Notes: generated by a model from the letters alone, not told the origin. Shown: positions 497 through 38,894, numbered from the stretch's first letter. The stretch: DNA of 64,000 nucleotides from Candidatus Poseidoniales archaeon (GCA_012959275.1 DUDM01000042.1:17018-81017); one strand, 5' to 3'. A program made the numbers and translations.

Positions 497-989
497 TTGC
501 TTCATGCTTCAATAACCATTGCTTGGTTATAACACCACCAAAGCCGGAATAATCTCCCAAGTCCCCTCCAGACTTGAGAACTCTGTGGCAAGGCACGATA
601 ACAGTTACAGGATTTGCAGCCATCGCCGTGCCTACTGCTCTTGAAGCTCCTTCGTGGCCCGCCTTTTTCGCTAAGTCTCCATATGAGATTGTTTCTCCAA
701 CTATTGTGGAATTCAATGCCATCCAAACATCTTTTTGGAAATCCGTACCTTGAAGGTCTAGTTTGACATCTGGTAATTCCTTCTTCTCAATGAATTGCGA
801 AAGCCATTTATCAACACTTGAAAGAATGCCCTTTTGTAAGAGAGTTGGTCTACTGAAAACCAACAACCTCTTCCATTTCGTCTGCTCTTCTGGAGATAGG
901 AAAATCAGGCGCTTCAGGCCTTTTTCACTGGCTGTTGCAAGCAGTATTCCACATGGTAATTCAAATAGAGAGTTGGCATCATTTACCAT
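489..989 (-). CDS. ogt: Methylated-DNA--protein-cysteine methyltransferase (O6-alkylguanine alkyltransferase)
   Basis: Active-site motif PCHRV (IVPCHRVLKSGGDLGDYSG). ATG at 989 (MVNDANSLFELPCG..) is preferred. The ORF stays open to 1064, but that start would overlap the upstream gene by 86 nt. Confidence 0.85.
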   Translation of the reverse strand: MVNDANSLFELPCGILLATASEKGLKRLIFLSPEEQTKWKRLLVFSRPTLLQKGILSSVDKWLSQFIEKKELPDVKLDLQGTDFQKDVWMALNSTIVGETISYGDLAKKAGHEGASRAVGTAMAANPVTVIVPCHRVLKSGGDLGDYSGFGGVITKQWLLKHEAIK

Positions 990-1278
990 TTTCTCCACCT
1001 TCAACCGGTGCTTCTTCCATCCCGATGATTTCATAATTTGAAGGGAATAAGGCGATGACAACACCTGCTATTAGGCAGAATAGCCCCCAGCCGAATGATT
1101 GCTGGACGATGAATAATTCCAAGGCGATGGCGCATAGGGTTAGTCCTCCAACGTTGGATATCCAAACCATGGTTTTGAAGGTGGAAAGCCCAACTCCTTT
1201 GGTGCCTTCTCCCCGATAGGGGCCAAACTCCCCTCCAAACCGGACTGCATCTTCCTTTTCCTCTGCCATTTCATTCAC
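979..1278 (-). CDS. Small hypothetical membrane protein
   Basis: 99-aa ORF with hydrophobic segments (LTLCAIALELFIVQQSFGWGLFCLIAGVVIALF). 4-bp overlap with the upstream ferredoxin-like gene. No recognisable family. Confidence 0.45.
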   Translation of the reverse strand: MNEMAEEKEDAVRFGGEFGPYRGEGTKGVGLSTFKTMVWISNVGGLTLCAIALELFIVQQSFGWGLFCLIAGVVIALFPSNYEIIGMEEAPVEGGENGK

Positions 1279-1637
1279 CTGTCAAGCATGACGATTGCAT
1301 CTGTTGGACATGCAAGTACACAGAGTCTACATCCTGTGCAAGGGTCGCGGAGGATTCTTGCTTTTTTGTTAATCTCTGTTTTCATCAATGGACTCGCCAT
1401 TTCTTTATCATACATTTCGATTGCATCATCATCGCAGACCAGTGTACACTGATCGCAACCGATGCATAATTTCTCATGCACAAAGGCAACAACTTCTTCA
1501 CCGCTCTTTAGGGATTCCTTTCTTTCTTCATGACTGGAGTCCAGTGCCTTTCGGATGCGCTTCGCTTCGCCATCTCGGCGTCGTTGAAGTTCATCTATTG
1601 AGGTCATCAGGGCTGGCGAAGGGCTGCTCGGTTTCAA
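1275..1637 (-). CDS. 2x[4Fe-4S] ferredoxin-domain protein with charged N-terminal extension
   Basis: Two cluster motifs, CIGCDQCTLVCDDDAI and CTGCRLCVLACPTDAI. 4-bp overlaps with both neighbours. Confidence 0.75.
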   Translation of the reverse strand: MKPSSPSPALMTSIDELQRRRDGEAKRIRKALDSSHEERKESLKSGEEVVAFVHEKLCIGCDQCTLVCDDDAIEMYDKEMASPLMKTEINKKARILRDPCTGCRLCVLACPTDAIVMLDR

Positions 1638-2836
1638 GCCTTCTCGCTCTGCAATTGCATCTCTTTGGCCATCGCCAACATCGATAATTCTGCAATCAAT
1701 GCATGCCAGCCATCAGCATGGCGTGTAAGGTGTTCAGGCATTTCATCACGGCGATGGAAGTGAGATGAAGGCGAGTTTAGATTATCCATGTCGTTTTTCT
1801 TTGAATTAACGCGATAAAACCAAGATGCTGCCTCCCCATCGACTAGGTAAACTACTGGCTCAACTGCCCCATCTTCATTGAATTGGGTTGGCACACCTTC
1901 TTGAATCAGGAAATTATCGACATTTACTCCACCTTTACTATAGGAAAGTTTCTTCATTTTCCGATTGGATAATTGCAGCAATTGTTCACCAGAGGTTATT
2001 GTCAGGATACCTAGGCCATATGTTCCTCTGTCATTTTTAACAAAGACAACGGGCTCTCTATCGATTCCGTGTTTTTCATATCGTTGCTTTATTGCTTGAA
2101 TAAACGCGTCAACTTCTGCTGCTAATTCGATTCGGCAATTTTCTTTATCCAAGCATTTGTCTTCGCTGACAATCCATGCTGTCGTTAGGTGCCAAGGGTC
2201 GATGCCAAGCATTTTGCATATTTCATTGACATATTCATCGAGTGCTGCATAGTGTTCGGACTTTCGTCGCCGATGCCACCCCATCTCTACCGGTGGGCTA
2301 ACTTGCTGGGCGCCAAGCCCGGGGACTATCCCTCCTGTCAGGTCATTATTGAGTAAAATGAGACAAGGTTTCTCTCCATTGATGAGCAATGAATCGCCAT
2401 CGACTTCTACCTCAACCAATTGTAATGGCCCAGAAATGCCGTCGAGGGCTCCGTATCCTTCCAGTTCTGGTGAGCCGATAGTTGTCTTGAATCCTGCTTG
2501 CTTCAACAAGCGGGAAATCACGGCCACATTCTCGACATAGGCAGGATTGCGAGTATGGGATTCAGGATAGAGATGGACCCATCGACAGCCAGGGTGGCGC
2601 CGCTGCAGGTGGTTATTGAGCAGTTGGGATAGAAGTGCTTCATCTTCAGGTGCAACGTTATTGAAGCCAGCCGGAAAGTGATTTGCATCCACTACGCAGG
2701 CTTTCCAGCCGGAGTCTCGGATATCGACACTGCCATAGATTGGGATTGGTAATTCACTGCGTTTTTTTGCGAACCATTCGGTAAGTTCTGTACGCTTTGC
2801 TTCAAGCAGATGTTCATTATCATCGAGGTAGGTCAT
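1634..2836 (-). CDS. Probable glutamate--cysteine ligase of the rare T. ferrooxidans-type GshA family (ATP-grasp-like ligase)
   Basis: 400 aa. The N-terminal block PIYGSVDIRDSGWKACVVDANHFPAGFNNV resembles the signature I recall for Pfam GshA/TIGR02049. The assignment is from memory only. Confidence 0.45.
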   Translation of the reverse strand: MTYLDDNEHLLEAKRTELTEWFAKKRSELPIPIYGSVDIRDSGWKACVVDANHFPAGFNNVAPEDEALLSQLLNNHLQRRHPGCRWVHLYPESHTRNPAYVENVAVISRLLKQAGFKTTIGSPELEGYGALDGISGPLQLVEVEVDGDSLLINGEKPCLILLNNDLTGGIVPGLGAQQVSPPVEMGWHRRRKSEHYAALDEYVNEICKMLGIDPWHLTTAWIVSEDKCLDKENCRIELAAEVDAFIQAIKQRYEKHGIDREPVVFVKNDRGTYGLGILTITSGEQLLQLSNRKMKKLSYSKGGVNVDNFLIQEGVPTQFNEDGAVEPVVYLVDGEAASWFYRVNSKKNDMDNLNSPSSHFHRRDEMPEHLTRHADGWHALIAELSMLAMAKEMQLQSEKA

Positions 2837-2845
2837 ATTTTCACT

Positions 2846-4519: not shown

Positions 4520-4566
4520 CGATTCAGGCGCTCAGCCGGTGCTTATTCAACTCATGGTTGAATAAT

Positions 4567-4686
4567 TTAAGCAGACCAAAGAGGGAAGGCGAACATTGTC
4601 CAAATTAAAGAGCCAAATGCAAGTAAGAATGCAAGCACGTAAACGCTCTGTGGAACTTCCTCAGAGGTGCTCTCTTCTTCGCTCAT
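4567..4686 (-). CDS. Candidate 39-aa small membrane protein (below the ORF-track cutoff)
   Basis: Hand translation gives MSEEESTSEEVPQSVYVLAFLLAFGSLIWTMFAFPLWSA*: an acidic head plus one TM helix. It lies in an otherwise unassigned 220-bp gap between asnB and the next gene. Confidence 0.2.
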   Translation of the reverse strand: MSEEESTSEEVPQSVYVLAFLLAFGSLIWTMFAFPLWSA

Positions 4687-4738
4687 GTATTACCTGCGGG
4701 AGTAGGCGACTTGTAAAGATAACGAAACCAATCACTAA

Positions 4739-5377
4739 TCAAAGCCATGGTGCAAATACCATTGCCACAGCCAAAGGAATCAAACTCATCGTTGCATTAT
4801 CATCAATAAAGCGAAGCCTTGGCTTTTCTGCCAGTACACATAGAGGGGCAAATAGGGGCACCATCCACCAACTTGTATCGCTCCAATATGCGCTACCTGC
4901 CCAAACTAATGCCAACAAAAGGCTGCCGTAAAGCATGACTTTGGTTTCATCCATCCCTTTTCTTCGCAATTCGCCTAATAATGGGTCTCCAAGAGAAAGT
5001 GATAGTATGATTGCAAACCCTATTCCGGCACTTGGTGCATACAAGCAAGTCATGCCAACTCCAAAGGCTCCCCAAACCAAAGCACTAACCTGATGGGCTT
5101 CGTATTTCCTTTGACCATAGATGGTGATTCCTAGTTTTAGTCGAATACCTTCACCAATAGCCATGACGATTATTGCAATGCTAACGATTTTTTCTTTAGT
5201 CCAAGAGAGGTTAGCAATGTCATTTAGAAAATCAACCAATGGCTCATGCCAGAGATAGTAAATGAAAGGAATGATGGACATCGAGACGTGAAATGATCTG
5301 CGCAGAAGGTGCCCCCCTTTTCCTCCCACCGATTGCTCGATTGGGTCGGTCATCTCCACCGTCTCAGTCTCACTCAT
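4739..5377 (-). CDS. Polytopic membrane protein, function unknown (weak resemblance to dolichol/phytol kinase-type CTP-dependent enzymes)
   Basis: 212 aa with about 6 hydrophobic segments. 4-bp overlap with meaB upstream. The LGDPLLGELRRKG and DDN segments only loosely recall the kinase family. Confidence 0.5.
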   Translation of the reverse strand: MSETETVEMTDPIEQSVGGKGGHLLRRSFHVSMSIIPFIYYLWHEPLVDFLNDIANLSWTKEKIVSIAIIVMAIGEGIRLKLGITIYGQRKYEAHQVSALVWGAFGVGMTCLYAPSAGIGFAIILSLSLGDPLLGELRRKGMDETKVMLYGSLLLALVWAGSAYWSDTSWWMVPLFAPLCVLAEKPRLRFIDDNATMSLIPLAVAMVFAPWL

Positions 5378-6237
5378 TGTTCTACCTCCAAAAGTAGAAT
5401 TGCTTCTCCAATGTTGATTTGAGAGGATTCTAATTCATCTAAAATTGAATCGAGGTTAGGGTGATGACTCATTCTCCTCATCCATTGACTGGCTAATCTC
5501 TCCCGCCATTGGGCACGACTGGTTCCAGAATCTGCAACTTCGTCTATCGCCTGAACTAGGTAAGTGACACCATCTCCGGTGTGGGATGATACTTGCATAA
5601 CAGGAATATCCTTGCTCCCTGCTGATAATGCTGAGATGATGTTGGCTGCAGTTGCATCTGCCCCTTCAAGGTCTGATTTATTGACTACAATAATATCGAC
5701 TAATTCGATAATCCCTGCTTTTTCTGATTGGATTGCATCGCCCATCCCTGGTGCTTCAACCAGTATTATGGTATCAGCAACTGCAGCGATTCTAAATTCT
5801 GCTTGGCCCGAGCCAACCGTCTCTATGATAATCCGCTTCCAACCGCATTCTTTGAGCACTGCCGCCATGTCTGCAACCACGCTAGGTACAGCTCCAGTTT
5901 CACCTCTAGTGGCAACACTGCGCATGTATACAAGGTCATCTAAATCAGCGGATTCCATTCTAAGTCGGTCGCCAAGCAAGGCTCCTCCTGATATTGGAGA
6001 AGAAGGGTCGACCGCAAGAATTGCTACTTTCTCACCGTTCCTTGCATATGCTTGTGCTAATTGGTCGACGAGGCAAGATTTACCCACTCCTGGTGCGCCA
6101 GTTATGCCAATAACTTGCCCTTCTTCTTCCGTACTGAAAGCCAAACCATTTTCGACAAGGCTTAGGGCTTGAGATAGGCCAAGTCTGCTGCCCGCTCTGG
6201 CTTTATCAATATCCATTTTCAGTCGCCCCAATGCCAA
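5374..6237 (-). CDS. meaB: Methylmalonyl-CoA mutase-associated G3E GTPase (MeaB/ArgK)
   Basis: P-loop GITGAPGVGKS, LLGDRLRM, and NKSD (VVNKSDL) guanine-specificity motif. Adjacent to the mutase B12 subunit. An alternative start lies at 6216. Confidence 0.85.
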   Translation of the reverse strand: MALGRLKMDIDKARAGSRLGLSQALSLVENGLAFSTEEEGQVIGITGAPGVGKSCLVDQLAQAYARNGEKVAILAVDPSSPISGGALLGDRLRMESADLDDLVYMRSVATRGETGAVPSVVADMAAVLKECGWKRIIIETVGSGQAEFRIAAVADTIILVEAPGMGDAIQSEKAGIIELVDIIVVNKSDLEGADATAANIISALSAGSKDIPVMQVSSHTGDGVTYLVQAIDEVADSGTSRAQWRERLASQWMRRMSHHPNLDSILDELESSQINIGEAILLLEVEQ

Positions 6238-6659
6238 TCTGATTCTGCTCCGCAGCCGGCATCATCCTTGGCTGCAGCGGTGCTGATGAAGTCGTTGATT
6301 TGAGTGGAACTTGTTCCAGGTCCAAAAATTGCTTTTATCCCCGCCTCAAAGAGTGCTGGTTTGTCTGCAGTGGGGATTATTCCACCACCGAATACGATGA
6401 CGTGTCCGACATCAGATTCCTGAAGCAATTTACAAATCTTTGGAAATAAGTGTGCATGAGCACCTGAAAGAGAACTAAGCCCAAGGAATTGGGCATCTTC
6501 ATCGATGACAGTACGAACAATTTGTTCAGGTGTTCTCCTCAATCCAGTGTAGATGACTTCATGGCCAGCATCGCGCAATGCTCGCGCAACTACCTTTGCT
6601 CCGCGGTCATGTCCATCGAGCCCAGGTTTGGCGATGACTATGCGCAATGGGGTTGCCAT
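6219..6659 (-). CDS. Methylmalonyl-CoA mutase, B12-binding small subunit
   Basis: RIVIAKPGLDGHDRGAKVVARALRDAGHEVIYTG contains the DxHxxG cobalamin-binding motif. ATG at 6659 (MATPLRIV) is preferred over 6722. Confidence 0.9.
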   Translation of the reverse strand: MATPLRIVIAKPGLDGHDRGAKVVARALRDAGHEVIYTGLRRTPEQIVRTVIDEDAQFLGLSSLSGAHAHLFPKICKLLQESDVGHVIVFGGGIIPTADKPALFEAGIKAIFGPGTSSTQINDFISTAAAKDDAGCGAESDWHWGD

Positions 6660-6748
6660 TATGTCGCCACACAACAACCGCATTGATGTGGCTTGCGCCC
6701 ACGGTGCTTGCTGGGTAATCAATATGAGGTGGCTGCCTCTGGTCGAGG

Positions 6749-8311
6749 ATGAGCACCATGGAGACGACTAGACAACGTCTTGACAATTTACGCAACCGAA
6801 AGGTGCGTGCAGAGGCCGGTGGAGGCCAAGAAAGAGTGGATGTTCAGCACAAAAAAGGCAAATTAACGGCTCGTGAGAGATTGGATTATCTACTCGATGA
6901 AGGCTCATTTCAGGAAATCGACGCATTGGTCGAACATCGCTGCAAAGATTTCGACATGGATAAGAATATCATTCCTGGTGATGGTGTTGTTTGTGGTCAT
7001 GGAACAATCGATGGCCGACCAATCTATTGTTTCGCTCAGGACTTCACTGTTTACGGTGGAAGCCTTGGTGAAATGCATGGTCTGAAAATTTGCAAAGTCT
7101 TGGATATGGCCTTGAAAAATGGGCTTCCTGTAGTTGGCCTGAATGATTCTGGCGGCGCAAGGATTCAGGAGGGCGTAGCCTCATTGGGGTCCTATGCTGA
7201 AATCTTCTTCCGTAATGTTAGGGCAAGTGGAGTTGTTCCTCAAATCAGTGTTATCATGGGACCTTGTGCTGGTGGTGCAGTGTATTCTCCAGCAATAACC
7301 GATTTCGTCATCATGGTTGACAAGACAGCCCACATGTTCATTACCGGACCTGAAGTCATTAAGACGGTTACAAATGAGGATGTTTCATTCGAGGACTTAG
7401 GCGGAGCAGAGACTCATGGCACTAAGTCAGGAGTTTCTCACTTTACTACTCAAAGCGATGAGGAAGCACTCGACCTTGCTCGACAATTGGTAAATTACCT
7501 GCCTGCAAATAATATGGAAAAAGCACCTACAAAGAGCAGTTCGGACCCAGCCGATAGATTGTGTACATCTCTGGATACGTTAATTCCTGATGATGATAAC
7601 AAGCCCTATGATGTCCGAAAGGCGATTGAAGAAATTGCCGATAATGGGGCTTTTCTTGAAGTCCAAGCCGATTGGGCCGCAAATATCGTTGTTGGTTTTG
7701 CTCACTTAGCCGGTAATACAGTTGGTGTAGTAGCAAACCAGCCTTGTATTTTGGCCGGTTGCCTTGATATCGATGCCAGCGATAAGGCTGCCCGTTTCGT
7801 TCGTTTCTGTGATGCATTCAACATTCCATTGATTACTTTGGTCGATGTGCCTGGATTCTTGCCCGGAACCAATCAAGAGTGGGGTGGAATAATTCGCCAC
7901 GGTGCTAAACTCCTCTATGCTTATTCTGAAGCAACAGTGCCAAAGATGACAGTTATCCTTCGCAAGGCCTATGGCGGCGCATACGACGTAATGGGTTCTA
8001 AGCATATTCGTTCAGACCTTAACTTGGCATGGCCAAGCGCCCAAATCGCTGTCATGGGGGCTGATGGGGCGGTTGAAATCATTCATCGCAACCGCATTAA
8101 GTCGGCACGAAATTCTGAGCAAGAAAGAGAGAGGCTGGTTGAAGATTTCAATGATAAGTTGCTCAATCCATGGAAAGCAGCAGGGCTTGGTTACCTCGAT
8201 GATGTTATCGAACCAAGTCAAACACGACGCCGCTTAGCCGCAACTCTTGCCATTCTTCTTGACAAAGAAGAATTACGCCCAGCCCGAAAACACGGTAACA
8301 TCCCACTTTGA
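6749..8311 (+). CDS. pccB: Acyl-CoA carboxylase carboxyltransferase subunit (propionyl-CoA carboxylase beta / methylmalonyl-CoA decarboxylase alpha family)
   Basis: 520 aa. Conserved blocks [50 protein letters not shown] and [11 protein letters not shown]. Confidence 0.9.
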
Positions 8312-8320
8312 GGAAATCAT

Positions 8321-8509
8321 ATGACGCATTCTGAGCAGACTTTACGCACAGCCGCAATAATGGCAGTGTTGAGTTTGCTTGATGAATCAACTTCTTTGGA
8401 TGATATTGGTCGTAATGCAGGTACCGCTTGGGCACAAGACCACCGATTATTAGCGAGCGGTCAATCAAGTCTGTTGCGCCGCCGTTCAGCAAGATCCCCA
8501 TGGAAGTGA
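8321..8509 (+). CDS. Small ORF between carboxyltransferase and BCCP, possibly an acyl-CoA carboxylase epsilon-like or OadG-like accessory subunit
   Basis: 62 aa, tightly packed between pccB and the BCCP gene. The AAIMAVLSLL segment and the W/R-rich tail loosely recall small carboxylase accessory subunits. Confidence 0.3.
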   Translation: MTHSEQTLRTAAIMAVLSLLDESTSLDDIGRNAGTAWAQDHRLLASGQSSLLRRRSARSPWK

Positions 8510-8513
8510 AAAG

Positions 8514-8927
8514 ATGGGGGAAATCAGAAAAGTAATCGTCGACGGAGTTGAATTTGAGGTTGACATCGAAGTCGGAGATGGTTCATACAAGGCTACCGTG
8601 GAAGGCCAAACTTTCGAAATTTCAATTCCCAATACAGCCCCAGTTTCTTCAAAGCGAAAGCGCGACAGTAGTCGAGGCAAAAAAAGCGGCGTCATATCAG
8701 CCAATATCCCTGGAAAAATAGTCACTATTGATGTTGCGGTTGGAGATGTGGTTGAAGAAGGCCATGTTATTCTCATTCTTGAGGCCATGAAAATGCAAAA
8801 TGAAATCGTCGCACCGATAGCAGGAATCGTTGAAAGCATCAATTGCGTAGAGGGTCAATCCATTGAGGCAAATATTCCATTAGCGGTGATAAAAGGCCCA
8901 GATGACCCCCCACAAGACGAGGGTTGA
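8514..8927 (+). CDS. Biotin carboxyl carrier protein (biotinyl domain)
   Basis: Biotinylation motif EAMKMQNEI within a typical lipoyl/biotinyl barrel sequence (GKIVTIDVAVGDVVEEGHVILILEAMKM). Confidence 0.85.
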   Translation: MGEIRKVIVDGVEFEVDIEVGDGSYKATVEGQTFEISIPNTAPVSSKRKRDSSRGKKSGVISANIPGKIVTIDVAVGDVVEEGHVILILEAMKMQNEIVAPIAGIVESINCVEGQSIEANIPLAVIKGPDDPPQDEG

Positions 8928-9193
8928 ATAAGAAGCATGGAGTGGTGTTAGTCGTGTCCGACTCTCCAAGTTGCGATTTTCCCGGCTGCGAAGTCGATGG
9001 TTTCGTTATTAGCAGGCTATCCCCAGAGGGGTTCTTGGTGGCTACTGGAAAGAAAGCCTATTCGTTTAGAGAGGCTTATCGCCGCTTCCATTATTGTCAG
9101 GCACACCATGATGAATTGATGGCAAATGTATGGTCAAGAGTACGAAGGCCTGATGATAAGTCGGATGGGCATGTTGCGCCAACCGCAATTTAA
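8924..9193 (+). CDS. Hypothetical Cys/His-containing protein
   Basis: 89-aa ORF with a 4-bp overlap on the BCCP gene. Contains C-x4-C .. C-x2-HH residues. No family recognised. Confidence 0.4.
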   Translation: MNKKHGVVLVVSDSPSCDFPGCEVDGFVISRLSPEGFLVATGKKAYSFREAYRRFHYCQAHHDELMANVWSRVRRPDDKSDGHVAPTAI

Positions 9194-9215: not shown

Positions 9216-11978
9216 TTAAGCTTCTATACTTGTTAGAGAATCACCTTCAACCAAAACTGGTTTGGCCGCATTAACTTGGCGAGCCAAGAATGAAACTATG
9301 TCAAGAATCTCAAAGTCATGGCGTGGGTCGCCTTCAAACTTCAAGCATTCAAAGTGAGCTACGCATTTTGGACATGAGGTTAGCATGACTTCAGCACCAG
9401 TTGCCCTTACTTCCTCAAAGCGGTCAACTCGCAATGCTCTGCTGTTTTCATTGCAGGACATCATACTTGATACGCCACAACACATTGCATCTTCACCATG
9501 GTGTTCCATTTCGACTAGTTCAACTCCAGCAACAGATTGGATTAACTCTCTTGGCTCATCATAAACTCCCATTTGTCGGCCCATCCTACATGGGTCGTGG
9601 TAAGTGACCTTGAGGTCTTCTTCAACTTTAAGATCCATATCGAAGTTGTTTTGTTGTAGGAATTCAGTAGTATGCATGACCTTGATTCCTTCCAATTCAT
9701 AGTCGCGAGCAAAGGTTCGGAAACACTCTGCACATGAAGAGACAAGTGTCTCAATTCCACTTGCCTTGATTTTCTTTTGGTTGTAAGCCTTTAGTTTCTC
9801 AAATACTTCAGTCATTCCTTGCCATTTCTGGTCATGACCACAGCACTTTAGGAAGTCGCGGCCCAAGTAGGCAACATCGACATCCATACTCTCGAATAGA
9901 GTAAAGGCAGCAGTGGTGCTATCTCCAAGGTTCATCTCTCCTTGGTTAACATGTGAGAAAACCATCTCTTGATCGATATAGTCGACACAGCCAGGATAAT
10001 AGCCAATTTTGCTGTCAATTCCCAATTCTTCAACACTGATGAAGTCAGCATCGCTCTCTTCTTCTGCTTCTGCAGCGAGAACCGCTTGTAGCACTGTATG
10101 AGGTATTTCTGCCGCAGGTGGTCCTCCAACCACCAAGTTTCGGCGAATATCAACATAGGAGTCATAGTCAACTAATTGTGGACAAGCAGTGGTACAAGCA
10201 CCACAGGTTAAGCAAGAATACATTGGTACACCATCGTCTTCATTATTCCAAGTATTGTAGATAATGTTGAGTTTGTCTCCAGCATTGAATAATCGTACAG
10301 GACAAGCATCATCACAGAGGTCGCAGTCGTAGCACTTATTCATTTCAAACTCATATCCTTTTGCCATTCTTCGCAATAAGGCCCACACCAAACAGCCAAC
10401 TGCTAGTGGAGGGATGAATAGGGTGTAGGTTAATTTTGCATCCAGACTCTTTGGATTAACGTGGTATGATGGGTTGTCTATGGACTCGTAAGATTCGATT
10501 CCGCCCATGGCGATGATGCCACCAGTATCTGAGAGATTTACTGCCATGCCGCTTTCCTTGAACAATAGTAGAGGCTGGTAAGAAATTACTTTCCAAGAGG
10601 ATTCTAAACTAATATTACTAGGAATCCCAGCACTGTTTTGAGTATATGTTGCAGTGTAGGAACCTACTGCTAATTCGGTTGTCAGGCTATCACAGCCGGT
10701 AGTTTTGACAATTTCATTTGCGCTACTATCTGTAATCACTAAACTTGTAGTCACTAAACTTGTAGTTAGGACTCCGTCTACCTTGCGTTCACTGGCTCGA
10801 TATTCACAGGAGATGTCGGTTATTGCTGCAGTTAGCCAGGTATCGTCAATAGTAAATTGGACGCTATCAGTATGCTTGAATGTACCATTCTGGACTAAAC
10901 TACCCTCTGCACCGTTTACTCCTGCCCCTAAATCCACATGATTGTTAACTCCAGAAAAATCGATTATTGTTGCTTGAGTCGGTTGATATAGATTCCATTG
11001 TAGCCAATCTGCTGCGGGTATCATCAGGTCGTCATACTTTCCTTCAGTGAATTGGTTTGCCTCGTTAACCGATGTATCGAGCGGCTGGCTTCGCATCTTG
11101 TAGAGTTCATCATCGTCTTCCATTGCTCCAAGTCCACCGGCATCCCAGAACCCATTATCGTAAATCGGCCACGTCATGGCACTGAATAATACTGCAATAA
11201 CTGCCCCCCCTACTGCTATTTGTTTACCTAATTTTGGAGTTGTACGCAAGCCGATACTATTGACGAGGAACCATCTTACTCCAAAATAAATTACAAACCA
11301 GATGAATATTCCCGTCATCACCCATGGTATGGCATTGAATACATCAGCCATCCAAGGTTCCCTAACCCCGCAAACCAAATCTCCATGGCTGTCTAATTTA
11401 CAAAAATCAGCCCGATTCTTTCCGTATAACTCGAGGAAAATATTGATTGAAAAGACCGATATGAACCAAACGTGAGCCAAGTAAATCGCCCCTGCAGTAG
11501 CAAAGACTGGGTCTTCTACACCGCGCTTTTCTCTGCCTCCAAGGAAAGGAGGTAATGCTAGGATTCCTACTGGGATTCCAGTTAGGAATGAGCCCCACCA
11601 TGCAGCGGACCATGGGAATACTGGTTGGCCGAAGAAATCACCAATTGGTCCAAGTGGAACATCGAATTGGGGCAGGTATTCCCCCCAGCGGAGGTATCCA
11701 TAGGAGAATAAAACATACCAATCAGGGAATACGAAGCCTGCTTGTGCAAAAGCATCTGCAGCATCGTGAAGCGGGGGTGGAATAAGCCACGAATAGAATG
11801 ATAATACAGCAAGAATCGCTACGAATACGATGCTGTCCCGAAGTACTTCATGAGGCCAAAACCCATGCCCAGTCATTGTACGGATACGCTTCTCACCGAC
11901 ATCCTTCAACTTGGCTTTCTCAACCATGTAGGTATCAGCGACTCTGCCAAAATTCTCGATTAGTCCCATTGCATTCAA
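9216..11978 (-). CDS. Fusion protein: cytochrome b C-terminal (subunit IV-like) domain, large extracytoplasmic insert, then an HdrD/GlpC-like 2x[4Fe-4S] plus two CCG domains
   Basis: The N-terminus (FWPHEVLRDS..FPDWYVLFSYGYLRW) matches the PEWY region of cyt b/b6f subunit IV. Extra TM helices follow, then about 250 aa non-hydrophobic, then a TM (LFIPPLAVGCLVWALL). After that come CYDCDLCDDACP and CLTCGACTTACP, then the Cys-rich CCG-type blocks (KCCGHD, SSCAECF, HDPCRMG, MCCGVSS, TSCPKCV). Confidence 0.8.
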   Translation of the reverse strand: MNAMGLIENFGRVADTYMVEKAKLKDVGEKRIRTMTGHGFWPHEVLRDSIVFVAILAVLSFYSWLIPPPLHDAADAFAQAGFVFPDWYVLFSYGYLRWGEYLPQFDVPLGPIGDFFGQPVFPWSAAWWGSFLTGIPVGILALPPFLGGREKRGVEDPVFATAGAIYLAHVWFISVFSINIFLELYGKNRADFCKLDSHGDLVCGVREPWMADVFNAIPWVMTGIFIWFVIYFGVRWFLVNSIGLRTTPKLGKQIAVGGAVIAVLFSAMTWPIYDNGFWDAGGLGAMEDDDELYKMRSQPLDTSVNEANQFTEGKYDDLMIPAADWLQWNLYQPTQATIIDFSGVNNHVDLGAGVNGAEGSLVQNGTFKHTDSVQFTIDDTWLTAAITDISCEYRASERKVDGVLTTSLVTTSLVITDSSANEIVKTTGCDSLTTELAVGSYTATYTQNSAGIPSNISLESSWKVISYQPLLLFKESGMAVNLSDTGGIIAMGGIESYESIDNPSYHVNPKSLDAKLTYTLFIPPLAVGCLVWALLRRMAKGYEFEMNKCYDCDLCDDACPVRLFNAGDKLNIIYNTWNNEDDGVPMYSCLTCGACTTACPQLVDYDSYVDIRRNLVVGGPPAAEIPHTVLQAVLAAEAEEESDADFISVEELGIDSKIGYYPGCVDYIDQEMVFSHVNQGEMNLGDSTTAAFTLFESMDVDVAYLGRDFLKCCGHDQKWQGMTEVFEKLKAYNQKKIKASGIETLVSSCAECFRTFARDYELEGIKVMHTTEFLQQNNFDMDLKVEEDLKVTYHDPCRMGRQMGVYDEPRELIQSVAGVELVEMEHHGEDAMCCGVSSMMSCNENSRALRVDRFEEVRATGAEVMLTSCPKCVAHFECLKFEGDPRHDFEILDIVSFLARQVNAAKPVLVEGDSLTSIEA

Positions 11979-11985
11979 CCTCCTA

Positions 11986-12861
11986 TCAATGCGGCTCCGC
12001 GATTCCTTGGACCCAGACGATGAACATGTGAACGATAATCAATCCAGTCACGATAACAGGTAAGATGAAGACGTGGATGAAGTACATTCTCGTTACTGTT
12101 CCACCTTCCAGTTTAGTACTACCAAATAATAAGGTCGCGATATATTTCCCTACTAATGGCGATGAATTACTCATGTTAATTCCAATCGTCGCTGCTCCAA
12201 ATGCCAAGGCGTCCCACGGTAACAGGTAACCCGAATATCCAAAGACGATAACTAAGAACATTAGTGCTACCCCAATTAACCAGTTCAACTCCCTTGGGTT
12301 TCGGTATGCGCCAGTGAAGTATACTCTGCACATATGCAGGAATACTGCGGCTACCATGAAGTGAGTCGCCCAATGGTGAATCGAGCGAATGATGTATCCG
12401 AATGGTAATTCTAGCATAATGAACTGCATAGAAGAATAGGCTGGGCTTGGGTCACCATTTCCGCCTGGAACATAGTAGATACCCAACACAGTACCAGTCA
12501 GAATTAGGATGATGAAGGCAATGAACGAAATCCCACCAAGGCAGTAAAGTGGGTACCAATACCAAATAATACGCAATTTATACTTCTCAGCATGGGTCAT
12601 AGGCATTTGTCTGTGCATGTTGTAGTACGCATCTTTGGACATCGCCCAATAATCCTGAACTCTGAATCGAGTGTCCAACCAAGAAAATACCCAGAGGAAG
12701 GAACGTTCGGCAACTCCCATCTTGCCCGATGCCTCGACTGCTCTAAGGATGTCTCGGCGGGGCATCTCTTGGTTTTCCTTTCGCAAAGTAAAGGCTACAA
12801 GAACGGTGATGAAGGCTATGAAAGACCACAATACCCAGAATATCGTATTCATCAAAATCAC
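11986..12861 (-). CDS. Cytochrome b, N-terminal (b6-like) di-haem subunit
   Basis: IRSIHHWATHFMVAAVFLHMCRVYFTGAYRNPRELNWLIGV..GYLLPWD carries the conserved His ligands and the R/NW/PWD blocks of cytochrome b. Confidence 0.85.
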   Translation of the reverse strand: MILMNTIFWVLWSFIAFITVLVAFTLRKENQEMPRRDILRAVEASGKMGVAERSFLWVFSWLDTRFRVQDYWAMSKDAYYNMHRQMPMTHAEKYKLRIIWYWYPLYCLGGISFIAFIILILTGTVLGIYYVPGGNGDPSPAYSSMQFIMLELPFGYIIRSIHHWATHFMVAAVFLHMCRVYFTGAYRNPRELNWLIGVALMFLVIVFGYSGYLLPWDALAFGAATIGINMSNSSPLVGKYIATLLFGSTKLEGGTVTRMYFIHVFILPVIVTGLIIVHMFIVWVQGIAEPH

Positions 12862-12862
12862 C

Positions 12863-13663
12863 TCAATCGCAATATGTCAACCAGTTCACGGTTGACCCCC
12901 CATCAACTTCGAAGGCCAATCCCTCGATGATATCTCCAGTGACTGCCACTGGAATGATTGGTAACCCAACGGGAGCAGGCCCACCACTTCGACGGATTCC
13001 TGCATAATTGAAGACTGAACCATCGGCTCGGTTTCTGTTAGTGTTCATTTCCAACATGGTTGGATCGAATCTTGAGGAATGGCAGATGCAGAATAATTTG
13101 GTACCACCGCTATCGGTACCACCGGCTGACCAATGGTCTTCTGTGAATGTATTTTCGACCAATTGCCAGCCTGGGATGCAACATAAGTGAGTGCAGCGGG
13201 AGAAAATCATAACGATATCATCGCTAGGGAAAATCCTCTCATCCTTATCGATTAGGTCTTCGATATGGCCGACATATTTTCCGGTTGCATCATAGCCTTC
13301 GGTCAATTGGAACCGGGGTTTGTTATCGACTTTAGGTGTGCCTGAATTAATTGAGTGTGGGATGAAGTTAACTGTTACAGGTAAGCCCATCCAAACTCCT
13401 GATGCTCCAGAGGTATTGGTCTTTGACTTGGCAGCCTGTGCAACGAAATCACTCTTCTTCATTGTCTCTAAGTGTAGGGAACCATACCATGCACTGTCTT
13501 CTCTGCCTTTGGCCCAATATTTGACCGCTGAGTCACCGGCTGAAGAACCACCACCTGGCATCAGGATGGATGCAAAACCAAGAACACCAAGGCTAGCAGC
13601 GAGTACACCGGCTGCCGAGTTTAATCCATAGCGCATGAATTGGCGTCGGTTGAGCATGGTCAT
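12863..13663 (-). CDS. Rieske [2Fe-2S] protein with twin-arginine signal
   Basis: Tat motif MTMLNRRQFMRYG. Rieske boxes CTHLCC and CICHSSRFD. In-frame upstream starts at 13729 and 13762 are also possible. Confidence 0.85.
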   Translation of the reverse strand: MTMLNRRQFMRYGLNSAAGVLAASLGVLGFASILMPGGGSSAGDSAVKYWAKGREDSAWYGSLHLETMKKSDFVAQAAKSKTNTSGASGVWMGLPVTVNFIPHSINSGTPKVDNKPRFQLTEGYDATGKYVGHIEDLIDKDERIFPSDDIVMIFSRCTHLCCIPGWQLVENTFTEDHWSAGGTDSGGTKLFCICHSSRFDPTMLEMNTNRNRADGSVFNYAGIRRSGGPAPVGLPIIPVAVTGDIIEGLAFEVDGGSTVNWLTYCD

Positions 13664-13740
13664 TGACTCGCTACCTTCAGCCCCTGAATCGGGCCCGGGT
13701 GCTGGGCGGAGGTCGTATTCTCTTACCATGATTCTCAACC

Positions 13741-14187
13741 TCAGAGTTTGTATTCCACCCAATCTTTTGGATGCTCTCTAACATACTTAGGGCGCCTATG
13801 TTTGACGATAACCTTGTCAGGTAGAACCCACTTCATGTAAACAACGCCCATCATAATAATTGTAGTTAGAGTCATTGCAAAATGATAGGATAACTGTTGT
13901 TGGTCCCAATCCATGAATAATCCATAGAGCATGCTGGCAGTCCAGTAAAGAACCCAGAATAATCCCCACACAAAGAAGAAAATCACCAGTAGACTTCCGC
14001 CACTTGGGGCTAGGCTGGCATTGACAATTGTACCCGGTTCTGCTGGATTGAATACTCCATGGTCGACGGCTGCAAGGTATTGTGGCTCGGTCAACTCTGC
14101 ATCTTCAAGGGCTGCTCGTGCATCCTTGATGGAAACTTTGCCACTCGCAACCTCTTCCAATAAACGAGTGATTGTATCACTCATCAT
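13741..14187 (-). CDS. Hypothetical membrane protein of the Rieske/cyt b operon
   Basis: 148 aa with a soluble N-terminal helix region and 2-3 TM segments. 4-bp overlap with the upstream gene. Confidence 0.5.
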   Translation of the reverse strand: MMSDTITRLLEEVASGKVSIKDARAALEDAELTEPQYLAAVDHGVFNPAEPGTIVNASLAPSGGSLLVIFFFVWGLFWVLYWTASMLYGLFMDWDQQQLSYHFAMTLTTIIMMGVVYMKWVLPDKVIVKHRRPKYVREHPKDWVEYKL

Positions 14188-15023
14188 TGGTCACCTCTTC
14201 TATTGACGTGGTATCTTAAGCGGAGTAAGTTCGACCTTCCTTCGTAAGATGTTGAGAATCCATATCGAAGCATGAAGCCGCAGAAAACAATGACCAATAT
14301 GACAGATAGGAATCCGAGTAAACCTAACCAGTGAGCACGAAGAGGTGCCCCCATATCGTGCAAGGAGACTCCATGCTCTTCTGCAGCTGGTGGTTCAATG
14401 TTGCCATCGCCTACGAAAATTGTGCGAACCCGTTCATCGGCGCCTTCTCTGGTCTCTTCGGGCAGTGAGAACATCAGGTGGTTCCAATTATCGGCATCAC
14501 TTTGGGCGTTATCTCCATTAACTGAATTTGCGCTGATACGGAATATTACGATTCCATTTCCTGCTTCGGGTGCTGTCCATGAAATCATCCAAGCCATGTC
14601 GCTAGTTTGGGCTCCATCTGTAGTATGAGTCAATGTTTGGCTATCTCCTTCAACGGCTTCGTGAATATCTGCTTCTGAACCCGCACCTGCTGCAAGGCTG
14701 CCAAAATCAACTCGCATAGAGAAGCCACCTGTATTGTGGCCTTCTTTGGTTGGGCCGCCAATAATTTGCAGTTTCATTTCATAAGTTTGACTGGGGATGT
14801 AAGTGTATGGGACCTTGTCCATTAGCACGGTTACTGAGTTTGTCGGGCCATCTCCGTTATGGCAAAGACATCCTTGTTCTGCAACATCAGAAATTTCATC
14901 TCCGCTATTGTCTTGAGTGCCACCAATGCCGCCTGAAAAGCCTAGGCTGCTACCTGGAATCACAATCAAAACCGCCAGTAGAGTGGATATGGCGACCCTG
15001 TATCTGTTCGATAACGTGACCAT
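14184..15023 (-). CDS. Exported, C-terminally membrane-anchored protein with GCLCH motif (possible redox partner; function unknown)
   Basis: Signal/anchor MVTLSNRYRVAISTLLAVLIVIPGSS. The beta-rich domain contains EQGCLCHNGDG and WMISWTAPEAGNGIVIF. C-terminal TM LGLLGFLSVILVIVFCGF. First gene of the operon. The ORF stays open to 15116. Confidence 0.55.
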   Translation of the reverse strand: MVTLSNRYRVAISTLLAVLIVIPGSSLGFSGGIGGTQDNSGDEISDVAEQGCLCHNGDGPTNSVTVLMDKVPYTYIPSQTYEMKLQIIGGPTKEGHNTGGFSMRVDFGSLAAGAGSEADIHEAVEGDSQTLTHTTDGAQTSDMAWMISWTAPEAGNGIVIFRISANSVNGDNAQSDADNWNHLMFSLPEETREGADERVRTIFVGDGNIEPPAAEEHGVSLHDMGAPLRAHWLGLLGFLSVILVIVFCGFMLRYGFSTSYEGRSNLLRLRYHVNRRGDQ

Positions 15024-15194
15024 GGTCTCACCAGCAATCAAGTCGAGGCGCAATTGGCACATAAGTATTTGCGACCCTCCCGTAGGGAGGGGGCTTTGCA
15101 GTGAGGCGTTTCTCAATCAATCAAGATTGGATTATTGGATTCAAGAATGACATGCACACGAAAGACTGTTCAAGGTCCAGCACATGGGCATGTC

Positions 15195-15526: not shown

Positions 15527-16441
15527 ATGAGGGCCGGTGGTGAAGCGGATATCCTGATTGCTGGAGTAGGCGGCCTCGGCTGTGCTTGGGCAATTCAAGC
15601 CCACAAAAAAGTCGCTGCGAATGTTGATTTATTGCTCATCGACCATCCCGAAGTCGACCGACAAGAAGTAAAGGCTCACCGACTTGACCTAGGAGTTGAT
15701 GAACATGATGCAGGTTGTGCTTCTTTATCCCAACTAGCACACCAAAGAATGAGAGCCCATGGGCCAAATACTGAGATTATCATGCAACCGATAGAATTGG
15801 TAATTTTAATGGCTGGCCTCGGTGGGGGCGCGGGTAGTGGAGCAGCACCAGAATTTGCTCGCCAAGCAAGAGCCCGTGGAGCACTCGTTCTTTCGATTGC
15901 AGCCCTTCCTTTTGAAAGCCAAATCGCCCGTATAGAAATTGCATCACAAGCACTGAAAGACCTCGAAGAATCTTCAGATGTTTGTGTGCGGTTGATGTTG
16001 GACCGCTTGGCTTGGCAGGCTAGAGAACGAGGTGCAGATTGGCGTAAAGGCGCCCATTGGATTGTGGAGTTGGTAGATGGCATCGTCCAAACGATCTGCC
16101 GAATGGGGCTGATTAACCTTGATTTAATGGATTTGAGAGCGGTCGTTGAACGTAAAGGGAAAGCCACGATGTTGGTTGCACAAGCCGCAGCTTCAGAACC
16201 CTTGGAAGTCTTTGCCAAGGCATTGAAGTCACCCTTGGACGATTTAGCAATCATTGGGGCTCGCTCATGTTTATTGCAAATCGAAGGTGGAAGAGGTATG
16301 ACTGTGGCCCAAGTCGAGGCAGTATCCAATGCTTTTACCCAAGGATTGCACCCAGACGCTCTTGTTATTTTGGGAGCCAGAATGAGTCCAGAATTAGAGG
16401 GGCAATTAAGGGCGGTTGCAGTAGTTTCAGGAATCAGTTGA
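15527..16441 (+). CDS. Divergent FtsZ/tubulin-superfamily GTPase without a C-terminal tail
   Basis: It appears collinear with FtsZ by eye. ILIAGVGGLG corresponds to GVGGGG, MAGLGGGAGSGAAP to the T4 signature GGGTGTG, LPFESQ to PFxFEG, and GLINLDLMDL to the T7 NLDFAD. It ends in AVAVVSGI. Confidence 0.75.
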   Translation: MRAGGEADILIAGVGGLGCAWAIQAHKKVAANVDLLLIDHPEVDRQEVKAHRLDLGVDEHDAGCASLSQLAHQRMRAHGPNTEIIMQPIELVILMAGLGGGAGSGAAPEFARQARARGALVLSIAALPFESQIARIEIASQALKDLEESSDVCVRLMLDRLAWQARERGADWRKGAHWIVELVDGIVQTICRMGLINLDLMDLRAVVERKGKATMLVAQAAASEPLEVFAKALKSPLDDLAIIGARSCLLQIEGGRGMTVAQVEAVSNAFTQGLHPDALVILGARMSPELEGQLRAVAVVSGIS

Positions 16442-17933
16442 GGATTTCTATTTCCTCATCATCATCCTCGTCAATAATTTCTATTTCCTCAGCATCTTCA
16501 AGCACTTCAATTTCCTCTTCCTCGTCACTCTCTTCAACAACTTCAATTTCCTCTTCTTCATCATCCTCATGAAGTGCCTCTTCTTCGACTAATATCTCCT
16601 CTTTTTCGACTTCTATTTCAACTTCGGTAATTTCTTCTTCAGGCTTTATTTCGTCTTCATCTTTTTTAATATCAGTAATAACTGACTCGGACTTCTGAGG
16701 GGCTGCCCAGGGCAATTGCATCAGGGTTTTACGATGTAAATGAAGTAGTGTCAAATAGGTTATTGCATGGCCAAACATCAAGACAGTTGCAACATCGCTG
16801 AGCATGATGGTAATCATGGTTATTGAACCTGCATAACCGAACCCGAAAACTAAGCCCCAGAAGAGGGCATTTTTCTCACTAAAATAGGGACTATCCACCT
16901 GTAAGGAGCGGCTAGATAATCCGTATATTGCTAATACAACAGTCAGTACCATTAAGGTCAATTCTTCGATTGTTGAGATTACTTCTGGCTCTCCAAATTC
17001 ACTGATTCTTCGCCAGATTGAAAGCAAGTGCCAAGCGGCGAATAATTGCATCATCAAACCGATACTAAAACTTGATTTTGCACCACCTTTGCTTTGCCCG
17101 GCAAATTCCCTGCTTGGTCGTGCCCAAACTAAGATTGAGATTTGTCCAGCCGCCAAAACCAAGAGGTATGCATATTGTTCTTTCAATACTTGAATGGGGG
17201 CGACATTTGAGGCTGCGGCAGCAGATTGAATAGCCCACATCATAGCAAATCCAGCAACCTGAACGATTGTCACCTGCATGAAGGAAGAAGAAATGAGATG
17301 AGGTTGCCTAACTCTTGAATCCACGAATGAAGGGCGGCCAATTAGCACTCCTTGGATTGTCATCCTGAACGAGATTGCTTGGCCCATCGACCAAGCGATG
17401 AATAAGAATGCCAGCGCCAAAGGTAAGCCGCCTGACCAAGATTCCAATGGCTTCCCTTGGCCAAATAATGCAAATAATCCAACTGAGACTATGGCTGTTA
17501 ACAACAAAGGAGGAATCCACACTTTGACCAATTGTTGGAATTGATGGATTAACCAAGCGCTCGCTCCTTTAGTTTCAGTTTCTTTGAAAGGAGTTGTGTT
17601 GACTAAATCGGTCCAGCGTTGTTTTCTTGCTGCCAATGCAATGATGACATAAGAAAAAGAAAATGAAATAAATGCAATTGCGATAGATTCGCTGTGCTGT
17701 GGCTTGATTTTTACGAGTTGGAATAAAGAAGTACTGACCAAAATCAATAGTAGAAGATGGGGGAATGTGCGTGGAGAGAGTAGAACTGCAATAATGCGAG
17801 CGAACCCCAAAACAGATGTTTCCACCTCTACTTCTTGGCTGCCCTCCAAATCGCCCACGTTATGGTTGGCGACGCAGTAGGCTATCAAGCATAGCCCTCC
17901 TCGGGGGGATGTGGCCGGTAAAAAGTTGAGCAA
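16434..17933 (-). CDS. Polytopic membrane protein with long Glu/Asp-rich C-terminal tail
   Basis: About 10 hydrophobic segments. The last roughly 90 aa are E/D/I/V repeats (EEEIEVVEESDEEEEIEVLEDAEEIEIIDEDDDEEIEIL). Only non-ATG starts are available (TTG 17933, GTG 17858). Confidence 0.6.
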   Translation of the reverse strand: MLNFLPATSPRGGLCLIAYCVANHNVGDLEGSQEVEVETSVLGFARIIAVLLSPRTFPHLLLLILVSTSLFQLVKIKPQHSESIAIAFISFSFSYVIIALAARKQRWTDLVNTTPFKETETKGASAWLIHQFQQLVKVWIPPLLLTAIVSVGLFALFGQGKPLESWSGGLPLALAFLFIAWSMGQAISFRMTIQGVLIGRPSFVDSRVRQPHLISSSFMQVTIVQVAGFAMMWAIQSAAAASNVAPIQVLKEQYAYLLVLAAGQISILVWARPSREFAGQSKGGAKSSFSIGLMMQLFAAWHLLSIWRRISEFGEPEVISTIEELTLMVLTVVLAIYGLSSRSLQVDSPYFSEKNALFWGLVFGFGYAGSITMITIMLSDVATVLMFGHAITYLTLLHLHRKTLMQLPWAAPQKSESVITDIKKDEDEIKPEEEITEVEIEVEKEEILVEEEALHEDDEEEEIEVVEESDEEEEIEVLEDAEEIEIIDEDDDEEIEILN

Positions 17934-31328: not shown

Positions 31329-31365
31329 GGCAAGGTTTCATCAGGGTGCAATAACAGGAGACTGC

Positions 31366-38859: not shown

Positions 38860-38894
38860 GATGCTCCACACCCGCTTCGGGTTGATGATGATTC

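Follow-up and report, generated by a model that had tools for sequence, protein, structure and literature searches.

A 64,000-nt stretch of DNA from Candidatus Poseidoniales archaeon (GCA_012959275.1; DUDM01000042.1:17018-81017), referred to in its full length as the window, contained on the minus strand an open reading frame (ORF) of 920 amino acids (aa), in which a cytochrome b/subunit-IV-like part was joined to ferredoxin-type and CCG domains resembling those of heterodisulfide reductase (Hdr) (referred to as the fusion; Table 1). The fusion was the last gene of an operon encoding, in this order, a 310-aa protein, a DUF7318-like protein, a Rieske iron-sulfur (Fe-S) protein, cytochrome b6, and the fusion itself, and no second subunit IV gene was present in the operon. 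The Rieske, b6, and fusion genes were separated by gaps of 1-7 nt, and their order was shared by 30+ loci from Marine Group II (MGII) to Geothermarchaeales. An earlier annotation (referred to as the sequence-only reading) had proposed a four-part architecture, i.e., a subunit-IV-like N-terminus, an insert flanked by transmembrane (TM) helices, a ferredoxin-type dicluster, and two CCG domains, and Pfam, profiles, and hydropathy recovered each of these parts. Its further proposal of a Rieske/cytochrome b6 partnership, instead of a NarI-type cytochrome, was borne out by the PF00033-type b6 and Rieske genes directly upstream. All motifs of this annotation were found in the translation: FPDWYVLFSYGYLRW (residues 84-98), CYDCDLCDDACP (549-560), CLTCGACTTACP (589-600), KCCGHD (711-716), SSCAECF (747-753), HDPCRMG (794-800), MCCGVSS (832-838), and TSCPKCV (867-873).

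The fusion probably starts at the ATG at position 11969, giving a protein of 917 aa, because GGAGG is located 9-10 nt upstream and the 95%-identical homologue P0001 is also 917 aa in length. The 120 best homologue clusters (63-95% identity, 98-100% query coverage, and contigs of up to 1.49 Mb) were nearly all from marine metagenomes and, where named, were assigned to Poseidoniaceae, Poseidoniales, or Thermoplasmatota. Full-length colinear orthologues were found in hundreds of independent Poseidoniales assemblies, confirming that the fusion recurs across this order. The same operon was present in four other MGII loci (L084, L085, L086, and L087), and L086, an independent assembly with 95% identity, had the same fusion gene and the same neighbours; base composition was even across the gene region. 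A mis-join or frameshift, against which the sequence-only reading had cautioned, was ruled out by these full-length orthologues and independent assemblies. The fusion itself is therefore real, and the function that we infer for it below is based on sequence and analogy. Public annotation of such proteins was limited to "Fe-S oxidoreductase" or "heterodisulfide reductase-related", and metabolic models built from genomes therefore miss subunit IV.

Table 1. Features of the fusion gene, its operon, and the ferredoxin locus in the window.
Feature	Position	Strand	Description and evidence
Fusion ORF	9216..11978	-	920 aa; subunit IV + 2-TM/extracellular insert + HdrC-like + HdrB-like modules
Cytochrome b C-terminal/subunit-IV module	11244..11978	-	Residues 1-245, TM helices E-H; profile against PDB, PF00032 homologues, hydropathy, AF2 helices
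Qo-site motif PDWY	11715..11726	-	Residues 85-88; translation and 52-sequence alignment
MGII-specific insertion (TM5, extracellular domain, TM6)	10365..11237	-	Residues 248-538; alignment region lengths, hydropathy
Extracellular acidic beta-sandwich (predicted)	10434..11162	-	Residues 273-515; AF2 pLDDT ~90 for residues 330-500
HdrC-like ferredoxin domain	10119..10346	-	Residues 545-620; two CX2CX2CX3CP motifs, C549-C559 and C589-C599
CCG domain 1	9699..10016	-	Residues ~655-760; C664, C712-C713, C749, C752; Pfam CCG
CCG domain 2	9339..9611	-	Residues ~790-880; C797, C833-C834, C869, C872; Pfam best stretch 791-876
Cytochrome b6-type subunit	11986..12861	-	291 aa; PF00033 E 2e-42; NCBIfam cytochrome b6/ExtP; four haem-ligand His
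CLGG haem-cn motif of b6	12532-12543	-	b6 residues 107-110
Divergent Rieske iron-sulfur protein	12863..13762	-	Twin-arginine leader RRQFMRYG; CTHLCC and CICHSS boxes; TIGR01416 E 4.6e-9, below cut-off
Small two-TM DUF7318-like protein	13741..14187	-	Weak PF24002 match; synteny
310-aa extracellular protein	14184..15116	-	N- and C-terminal TM anchors; choice-of-anchor V NF041895 E 1.9e-24; GCxCH
RnfB-like 2x[4Fe-4S] ferredoxin	1275..1637	-	120-aa ORF; Pfam Fer4_21; tblastn 60-61% identity to L084 and L085 ferredoxins
Small membrane protein	979..1278	-	99 aa; tblastn 63% identity to L084 and L085 proteins; synteny

The HMM matches anticipated by the sequence-only reading were obtained in part: the CCG and Fer4 families were matched directly, whereas PF00032 (Cytochrom_B_C) was missed by the window protein and reached via the family profile and distant homologues. 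A Pfam scan of the window fusion protein alone gave no PF00032 match at E below 0.1, and its sole direct match to b6f subunit IV, using single-sequence phmmer against the PDB, had an E of 0.41. When an N-terminal profile (240 residues from 12 family members) was used, the C-terminal half of cytochrome b (residues ~232-360) and b6f subunit IV were matched with E of 4.6e-14 and 5e-10, respectively. A HMMER search with residues 1-290 as the query gave 93 representatives; distant homologues of the N-terminus (30-41% identity) passed the PF00032 gathering score (e.g., 48.7 bits for P0171), and all of these carried PDWY. P85, D86, and W87 were invariant in an alignment of 52 sequences, and an AF2 helix started at residue 87, which located PDWY where the ef helix begins, past helix E. 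PDWY is the Qo variant of menaquinol-oxidising, low-potential complexes (PMC4122944). Since the family profile matched and the distant homologues passed PF00032, the N-terminus of the fusion is a cytochrome b C-terminal/subunit-IV module, i.e., the Qo-site half of cytochrome b.

Hydropathy analysis gave six TM helices, of which the first four (49-67, 129-147, 164-182, and 216-234) corresponded to helices E-H of the subunit-IV module, and the last two (254-272 and 516-534) flanked an acidic loop of 243 residues (273-515). Basic loops were found at 1-48, 148-163, 235-253, and beyond 534, and acidic or K/R-poor loops at 68-128 and 273-515. The N-terminus of subunit IV is located on the n-side, as established for b6f and bc1; because of this orientation and the six helices, the insert is predicted to be outside the cell and the Fe-S/CCG module to be cytoplasmic. 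The positive-inside rule agreed with this topology, which was that proposed in the sequence-only reading, and relatives of 543-800 aa, with four TM helices and no insert, gave the same orientation of the Fe-S module. In the AF2 model of the fusion (mean pLDDT of 76), the helices agreed with hydropathy and the insert was confidently beta-rich. When modelled alone, the insert formed a beta-sandwich with weak fold matches (GOLD-domain/jelly-roll), and it had just two invariant Cys residues (C391 and C429), no PDB sequence match, and no cofactor motif; a role as a redox or cofactor domain was therefore ruled out. Some MGII lineages possessed versions of the fusion of 1334-1349 aa (P0235, P0238, and P0249; locus L085, 8001-12005), presumably with a much larger extracellular insert.

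On the C-terminal side, Pfam Fer4_8/9/10 were matched above their cut-offs over residues 545-601, and the first cluster motif began ~14 residues past TM6. All eight Cys residues of the ferredoxin domain (549/552/555/559 and 589/592/595/599) were invariant in the 52-sequence alignment. Pfam CCG (PF02754) was matched in two stretches with an E of 1.7e-23; the Cys residues of CCG domain 1 (664/712/713/749/752) were invariant or at least 90% conserved, and those of CCG domain 2 (797/833/834/869/872) were invariant and aligned with C637/C672/C673/C709/C712 of EtfD. E751, within C749-A-E-C752, was also invariant. Both CCG motifs were complete with the HdrB-type Cys set (C...CCG...CXXC), and CCG domain 1 matched the folds of HdrB and LutA. 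The fold match of the fusion to HdrB gave TM-scores of ~0.65 (normalised to the target). The order of two CX2CX2CX3CP motifs followed by two CCG domains corresponded to the HdrD/HdrCB-type pattern. A profile of the whole family together matched EtfD (E 6e-41), the C-terminal half of cytochrome b (1e-11), b6f subunit IV (1e-9), HdrC (5odc_C; 6e-10 to 1.4e-9), and HdrB (8e-7). NCBIfam gave only partial matches below the cut-offs (TfrB, LdhH, GlpC, DsrK, TmcB, HmcF, GlcF, and HdrB); the best was TfrB with 109-113 bits against a cut-off of 385, and HdrB reached 16-20 bits against 450. The ligand set is compatible with a (putative) disulfide reductase activity at noncubane [4Fe-4S] clusters.

Relatives were surveyed by a scan of GTDB species genomes and by local BLAST of neighbouring genes. 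In Marine Group III (MGIII) and other Poseidoniia, the same operon carried subunit IV joined to Fer4 (~350 aa) and a CCG protein (~295 aa) as overlapping, adjacent genes. The gene following this HdrB-like gene in MGIII (L017, 9880-10731; L013, 5973-6983) encoded either a zinc-ferredoxin-like domain (ZFX_Thplmales, E 4e-21) or a flavodoxin domain resembling that of CysJ; in both cases, an RnfB-like Fer4 domain was attached, which was homologous to the MGII ferredoxin (see below). In Thermoplasmata, one uncultured archaeon, and one metagenome-assembled genome (MAG) of Geothermarchaeales, subunit IV, Fer4, and two CCG domains were fused within 543-606 aa, and database homologues of this shorter fusion reached ~800 aa. 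The shorter fusions were followed by polyferredoxin-MvhD, HdrC-HdrB-HdrA-MvhD, or FrhB-HdrA-MvhD-HdrD-GcvH (L002, 8629-13487; L003, 3683-10011; L001, 9794-11320; L025, 9756-13020), which suggests that membrane-bound HdrA-type (flavin-bifurcating) complexes are anchored on the Rieske/cytochrome b complex in archaea other than MGII. One Halobacteria MAG had only subunit IV with Fer4, and loci with plain subunit IV possessed neither Fe-S and CCG domains nor the downstream carrier modules. Electron-carrier partner genes thus followed the Fe-S-bearing subunit IV in nearly all lineages, and the fusion belongs to a wider conserved variant of archaeal complex III, which is apparently undescribed. As a separate observation, a contig of 5 kb (L007, CAXGWP010000033.1), assigned by binning to "uncultured Nitrosomonadaceae bacterium", carried an MGIII-type operon (310-aa-type protein, Rieske, b6, subunit IV-Fer4, and CCG), and is probably mis-binned.

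The cytochrome b6 of the window has, in helix A, the b6f-type CxGG motif for the (predicted) attachment of haem cn. CxGG was also found in b6 from 4/4 of the other MGII loci and from 15 further loci with a fused or split Fe-S-bearing subunit IV (14 distinct, L002 and L005 being the same contig), and SLGG replaced it in 12 MGIII loci. The scan detected no haem-cn motif in one fused locus (L003), and neither CxGG nor SLGG occurred in the loci with subunit IV only and a b6 gene (0/6). Across 36 loci, these motifs were almost confined to those with an Fe-S-bearing subunit IV, as a raw count that ignores kinship. In several Thermoplasmata, the last 240 residues of a long ORF (876-1074 aa; L001, 4860-7973; L004, 788-3613; L006, 3658-6882; L025, 5316-7955) made up the b6 domain, and a Big_5 (Ig-like) domain was found in the N-terminal part of the L001 gene call; in some of these ORFs, the reading frame may also extend through the Rieske gene located upstream.

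The divergent Rieske protein of the window was encoded at a position orthologous to those of PF00355 proteins in L001 and L002, and the DUF7318-like gene was conserved as the first or second gene of the operon. The synteny of the 310-aa protein held in MGII, MGIII, and Thermoplasmatota. Its GCxCH motif, with one residue between the Cys residues unlike CxxCH, was present in 9/10 homologues checked (L084-L087, L013, L017, L028, L032, and L035, but not L030), and a search of the PDB gave no sequence match. This protein holds the place of cytochrome c1/f as the first gene of the operon, and is a candidate to accept the electron from Rieske.

In L084, L085, and L087, the fusion gene was followed by a ferredoxin gene (~110-126 aa) and then by a gene for a membrane protein (~95 aa), the latter always directly after the ferredoxin. 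The homologous pair in the window was separated from the fusion by an inverted block (1634-9193) encoding GshA (gamma-glutamylcysteine ligase), AsnS, MeaB, a B12-binding protein, a carboxyltransferase, and a biotin carrier; the ferredoxin gene overlapped the GshA stop codon by 4 nt, and the rearranged gene order recurred in L086. The best NCBIfam match of the window ferredoxin was rnfB (50.5 bits, below the cut-off). Genomes of MGII have been reported to encode an "MGII-specific complex III" as well as an orphan "RnfB", with no explanation for either (Tully 2019, PMC6336850), and we infer that the fusion-associated ferredoxin is probably this orphan. Genes of the methylmalonyl-CoA pathway flanked the operon (5374-8927: MeaB-like GTPase, B12-binding mutase subunit, carboxyltransferase, and biotin carrier), and this neighbourhood was retained in L084-L087. 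GshA adjoined the operon or the ferredoxin gene in the window, L085, L086, and L087, with its strand varying between loci, and was absent near the operon in L084.

Among known systems, mycobacterial EtfD (Rv0338c family; PDB 9ojn) is an experimentally supported wire, in which electrons pass from a soluble donor through two CCG-bound and two cubane clusters to haem b and menaquinone (PMC13083937). EtfD was both the best sequence match of the fusion (with the single sequence, E 7.8e-25; with the profile, 6e-41) and its best fold match (Foldseek E 5.7e-15). It similarly combines, in one polypeptide, membrane helices with a cytoplasmic part that comprises two cubane [4Fe-4S] motifs and then two CCG domains. 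However, the membrane part of EtfD has five helices, resembles NarI/HdrE, and binds a single haem b, whereas that of the fusion is subunit IV of a Rieske/cytochrome b complex; alignments with EtfD began at its residue ~405, and no match between the N-terminus of the fusion and the membrane part of EtfD was obtained. Furthermore, EtfD has CT and CPHC motifs (a linear [3Fe-4S] and a His-ligated noncubane cluster), in contrast to C712-C713 and CAEC in the fusion, which are HdrB-like, and its donor is electron transfer flavoprotein (ETF), whereas the conserved neighbour of the fusion was a ferredoxin. An EtfD-like function with ETF as the donor, prompted by the top fold match and by fatty-acid degradation in MGII, was rejected because of the different cluster ligands, the absence of etf genes near any locus examined, and this ferredoxin neighbour.

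In HdrDE, DsrMK, HmcEF, and TmcBC, a dihaem membrane cytochrome that interacts with the quinone or methanophenazine pool likewise bears, on its cytoplasmic face, a ferredoxin dicluster together with two CCG domains. Their cytochrome is, however, of the NarI type, and differs from the b6-type subunit, Rieske protein, and Qo site found here; the Fe-S/CCG module of the fusion is linked covalently to the membrane via subunit IV. With a Rieske/b6-type cytochrome and scores below every equivalog cut-off, the fusion is an HdrD-like module on a dihaem cytochrome, as in HdrDE, DsrMK, and EtfD, yet a member of none of these families. It is instead a member of the Rieske/cytochrome b superfamily, of the split b6 and subunit IV type with the haem-cn motif. 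The b6f and Bacillus-type bc complexes share this split, the 14-residue His spacing of helix D, CxGG, PxWY, and a Rieske protein. They differ in that neither cytochrome f nor c1 was found here, the GCxCH choice-of-anchor V protein being first in the operon, and in that the present subunit IV has a fourth helix and, uniquely, an Fe-S/CCG module. For b6f, it has been proposed that electrons from stromal ferredoxin may enter at haem cn.

The nearest published precedent is the "PDWF-FeS" clade of bacterial cytochromes b (Kao and Hunte 2014, PMC4122944), corresponding to subfamily H of Dibrova et al. (PMC5600118), in which a whole cytochrome b, bearing a Qo-type motif, and cytoplasmic redox domains (4Fe-4S plus MvhD, or ferredoxin plus flavin reductase) are linked covalently. 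This clade is bacterial, has PDWF, and is devoid of Rieske and CCG, whereas the fusion family is archaeal, has PDWY, and retains Rieske together with HdrC and HdrB; the window fusion, without MvhD, falls outside the clade. In anammox bacteria (PMC12954380), Rieske/cytochrome b complexes carry added NAD(P)H-oxidoreductase and multihaem subunits, and the cytoplasmic module is thought to use the low-potential branch. This module constitutes a flavoprotein subunit in its own right, in place of the Hdr-like Fe-S/CCG part that is fused here, and the organisms and their physiology are different. The Rieske-less bacterial clade is thus the closest partial precedent, and no described member of the Rieske/cytochrome b superfamily carries an Fe-S/CCG module. 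The view of the sequence-only reading that the arrangement is undescribed agreed with the full-text literature searched, in which no description of the fusion was found; most subscription journals lie outside this coverage, and absence is accordingly unproven. Genome papers on MGII mention only cytochrome b and a Rieske protein, with no canonical bc1 complex.

We lean toward a reading in which the module would act as an Fe-S wire on the n-side of complex III, exchanging electrons between a ferredoxin-type partner and haem bn/cn with the quinone-reduction (Qn) site. Four Fe-S clusters would form this wire on the cytoplasmic side; its partner end would face the RnfB-like ferredoxin in MGII, the zinc-ferredoxin/flavodoxin-containing protein in MGIII, and HdrA/MvhD/polyferredoxin in Thermoplasmata, and its far end would meet cytochrome b6, at haem bn/cn and the Qn site. 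The conserved neighbouring ferredoxin, flavodoxin, or HdrA genes favour a protein as the partner in this exchange over the disulfide- or organic-acid-type site contemplated in the sequence-only reading. The occurrence of the subunit IV-Fer4 and CCG parts as adjacent genes in MGIII and as one fused gene in other lineages, a Rosetta-stone pattern, also counted for the wire. Further points in its favour are the simultaneous profile matches to EtfD, cytochrome b, subunit IV, HdrC, and HdrB, the place of the fusion at the end of a Rieske/b6 operon, the predicted cytoplasmic position of the Fe-S module with its first cluster motif ~14 residues past TM6, the co-occurrence of CxGG in b6, the analogy with EtfD, and the orphan "RnfB" reported in MGII. 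The most speculative part concerns direction: in MGII, an aerobic heterotroph, inward flow would be favoured for that reason. Reduced ferredoxin would feed the Fe-S chain, from which haem cn/bn and then quinone would receive the electrons, and oxidation of the quinol so formed would follow at the Qo site of this same complex. A ferredoxin:quinone oxidoreductase would, in that case, be built on complex III as its second role, comparable to EtfD, which connects ETF with menaquinone, and to the proposed ferredoxin-to-haem-cn route in b6f.

Several points weigh against the wire. The full HdrB-type Cys set (CC and CAEC, in comparison with CT and CPHC of EtfD) fits a catalytic disulfide site equally well or better. 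The ferredoxin gene of the window is located 7.6 kb from the fusion and is not adjacent to it. The correlation with CxGG ignores phylogeny, and many MGIII carry Ser in place of Cys. The supply of reduced ferredoxin in MGII by 2-oxoacid:ferredoxin oxidoreductases is background from outside the window.

The same clusters may instead serve as an exit port, an unlikely but serious rival, especially for the relatives bearing HdrA/MvhD. Quinol electrons would be bifurcated at the Qo site, the high-potential electron passing to Rieske and oxygen, and the low-potential electron through haem bL/bH and the Fe-S chain to a cytoplasmic acceptor (ferredoxin, or NAD(P)+/F420 through partners). The architecture fits this equally well, and the HdrA/MvhD/FrhB modules that follow the fusions of relatives are typical of electron-bifurcating systems; the anammox Rieske/cytochrome b complexes, for which such a route has been proposed (PMC12954380), offer a precedent. 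However, an aerobic heterotroph has little obvious need for reduced ferredoxin derived from quinol, and, except with unusual haem potentials, electrons would face a steep climb from haem bH to ferredoxin. In MGIII, moreover, the partners contain a zinc-ferredoxin-like domain, and zinc ferredoxin in Thermoplasmatales is a metabolic electron donor.

A catalytic disulfide reductase or thiol oxidase is doubtful in a similar manner, and we rate it as rather improbable. Two HdrB-type noncubane clusters would reduce a disulfide, of a protein or of a low-molecular-weight compound, or oxidise the thiol, and would trade electrons with the quinone pool via b6, as an analogue of HdrDE built on complex III; this is the direction taken by the sequence-only reading. 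Both CCG motifs are complete, invariant, and HdrB-like, differing from those of the non-catalytic EtfD, and the fold match with HdrB points in the same direction. On the other hand, all matches to HdrD, DsrK, TfrB, GlpC, and GlcF were far below the equivalog cut-offs, MGII have, to our knowledge, no coenzyme M/coenzyme B metabolism, and the conserved partner genes encode electron carriers, not thiol-handling proteins. The proximity of GshA to the operon or ferredoxin in four loci was considered as a clue to a gamma-glutamylcysteine disulfide, and counts as weak support for this rival, its orientation not being conserved and the gene being absent near the L084 operon.

It is highly improbable that the subunit-IV part is merely an anchor, and that the protein acts apart from Rieske and b6, for example by carrying electrons from a soluble dehydrogenase to quinone in the manner of GlpC, LutA, or SdhE, with an incidental operon linkage. 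Many dehydrogenases make use of CCG proteins (e.g., GlpC, LutA, and GlcF), and LdhH, GlpC, and GlcF were among the weak partial NCBIfam matches. Nevertheless, the invariant PDWY Qo motif makes sense only beside b6 and Rieske, the operon provides no other subunit IV, and the order of Rieske, b6, and the fusion is conserved from MGII to Geothermarchaeales. An assembly artefact joining two unrelated genes, for which no supporting point was found, has practically no chance of being correct in view of the hundreds of colinear full-length orthologues (on contigs of up to 1.49 Mb), the gene in L084-L087, and the even composition.

Whether a previously unrecognised class of complex III exists in Poseidoniia, several Thermoplasmatota, and Geothermarchaeales, in which an HdrCB-type subunit IV couples ferredoxin, flavodoxin, or HdrA to haem cn/bn and the Q cycle, appears to us evenly balanced. 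If it does, the direction of flow would decide whether this complex has a ferredoxin:quinone oxidoreductase built in or generates low-potential reductant, driven by the Qo site; quinone-based and flavin-based electron bifurcation would be joined in one machine in the HdrA/MvhD relatives, and the orphan "RnfB" of MGII would be explained. Judging from their gene organisation, the two known kinds of electron bifurcation may be physically coupled in these relatives. Poseidoniia (MGII and MGIII) are among the commonest archaea of the surface ocean. MGII are uncultured and globally abundant, and their complex III thereby gains a concrete and unusual architecture, together with a testable function as a direct electrical link from cytoplasmic ferredoxin-type carriers to the Q cycle. 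The theme of an HdrD-like module on a dihaem cytochrome, known from HdrDE, DsrMK, and EtfD, is extended to Rieske/cytochrome b complexes, and the family offers a natural system for haem cn as an electron entry point on the n-side, a long-standing question in cyclic electron flow through b6f.

Elsewhere in the window, four large ORFs had no Pfam match: 16434-17933 (minus strand, 499 aa), 31291-34671 (plus strand, 1126 aa), 37096-38898 (minus strand, 600 aa), and 43133-45133 (plus strand, 666 aa). The 499-aa ORF encodes a polytopic membrane protein, the long C-terminal tail of which is highly acidic and rich in Glu, Asp, and Ile.

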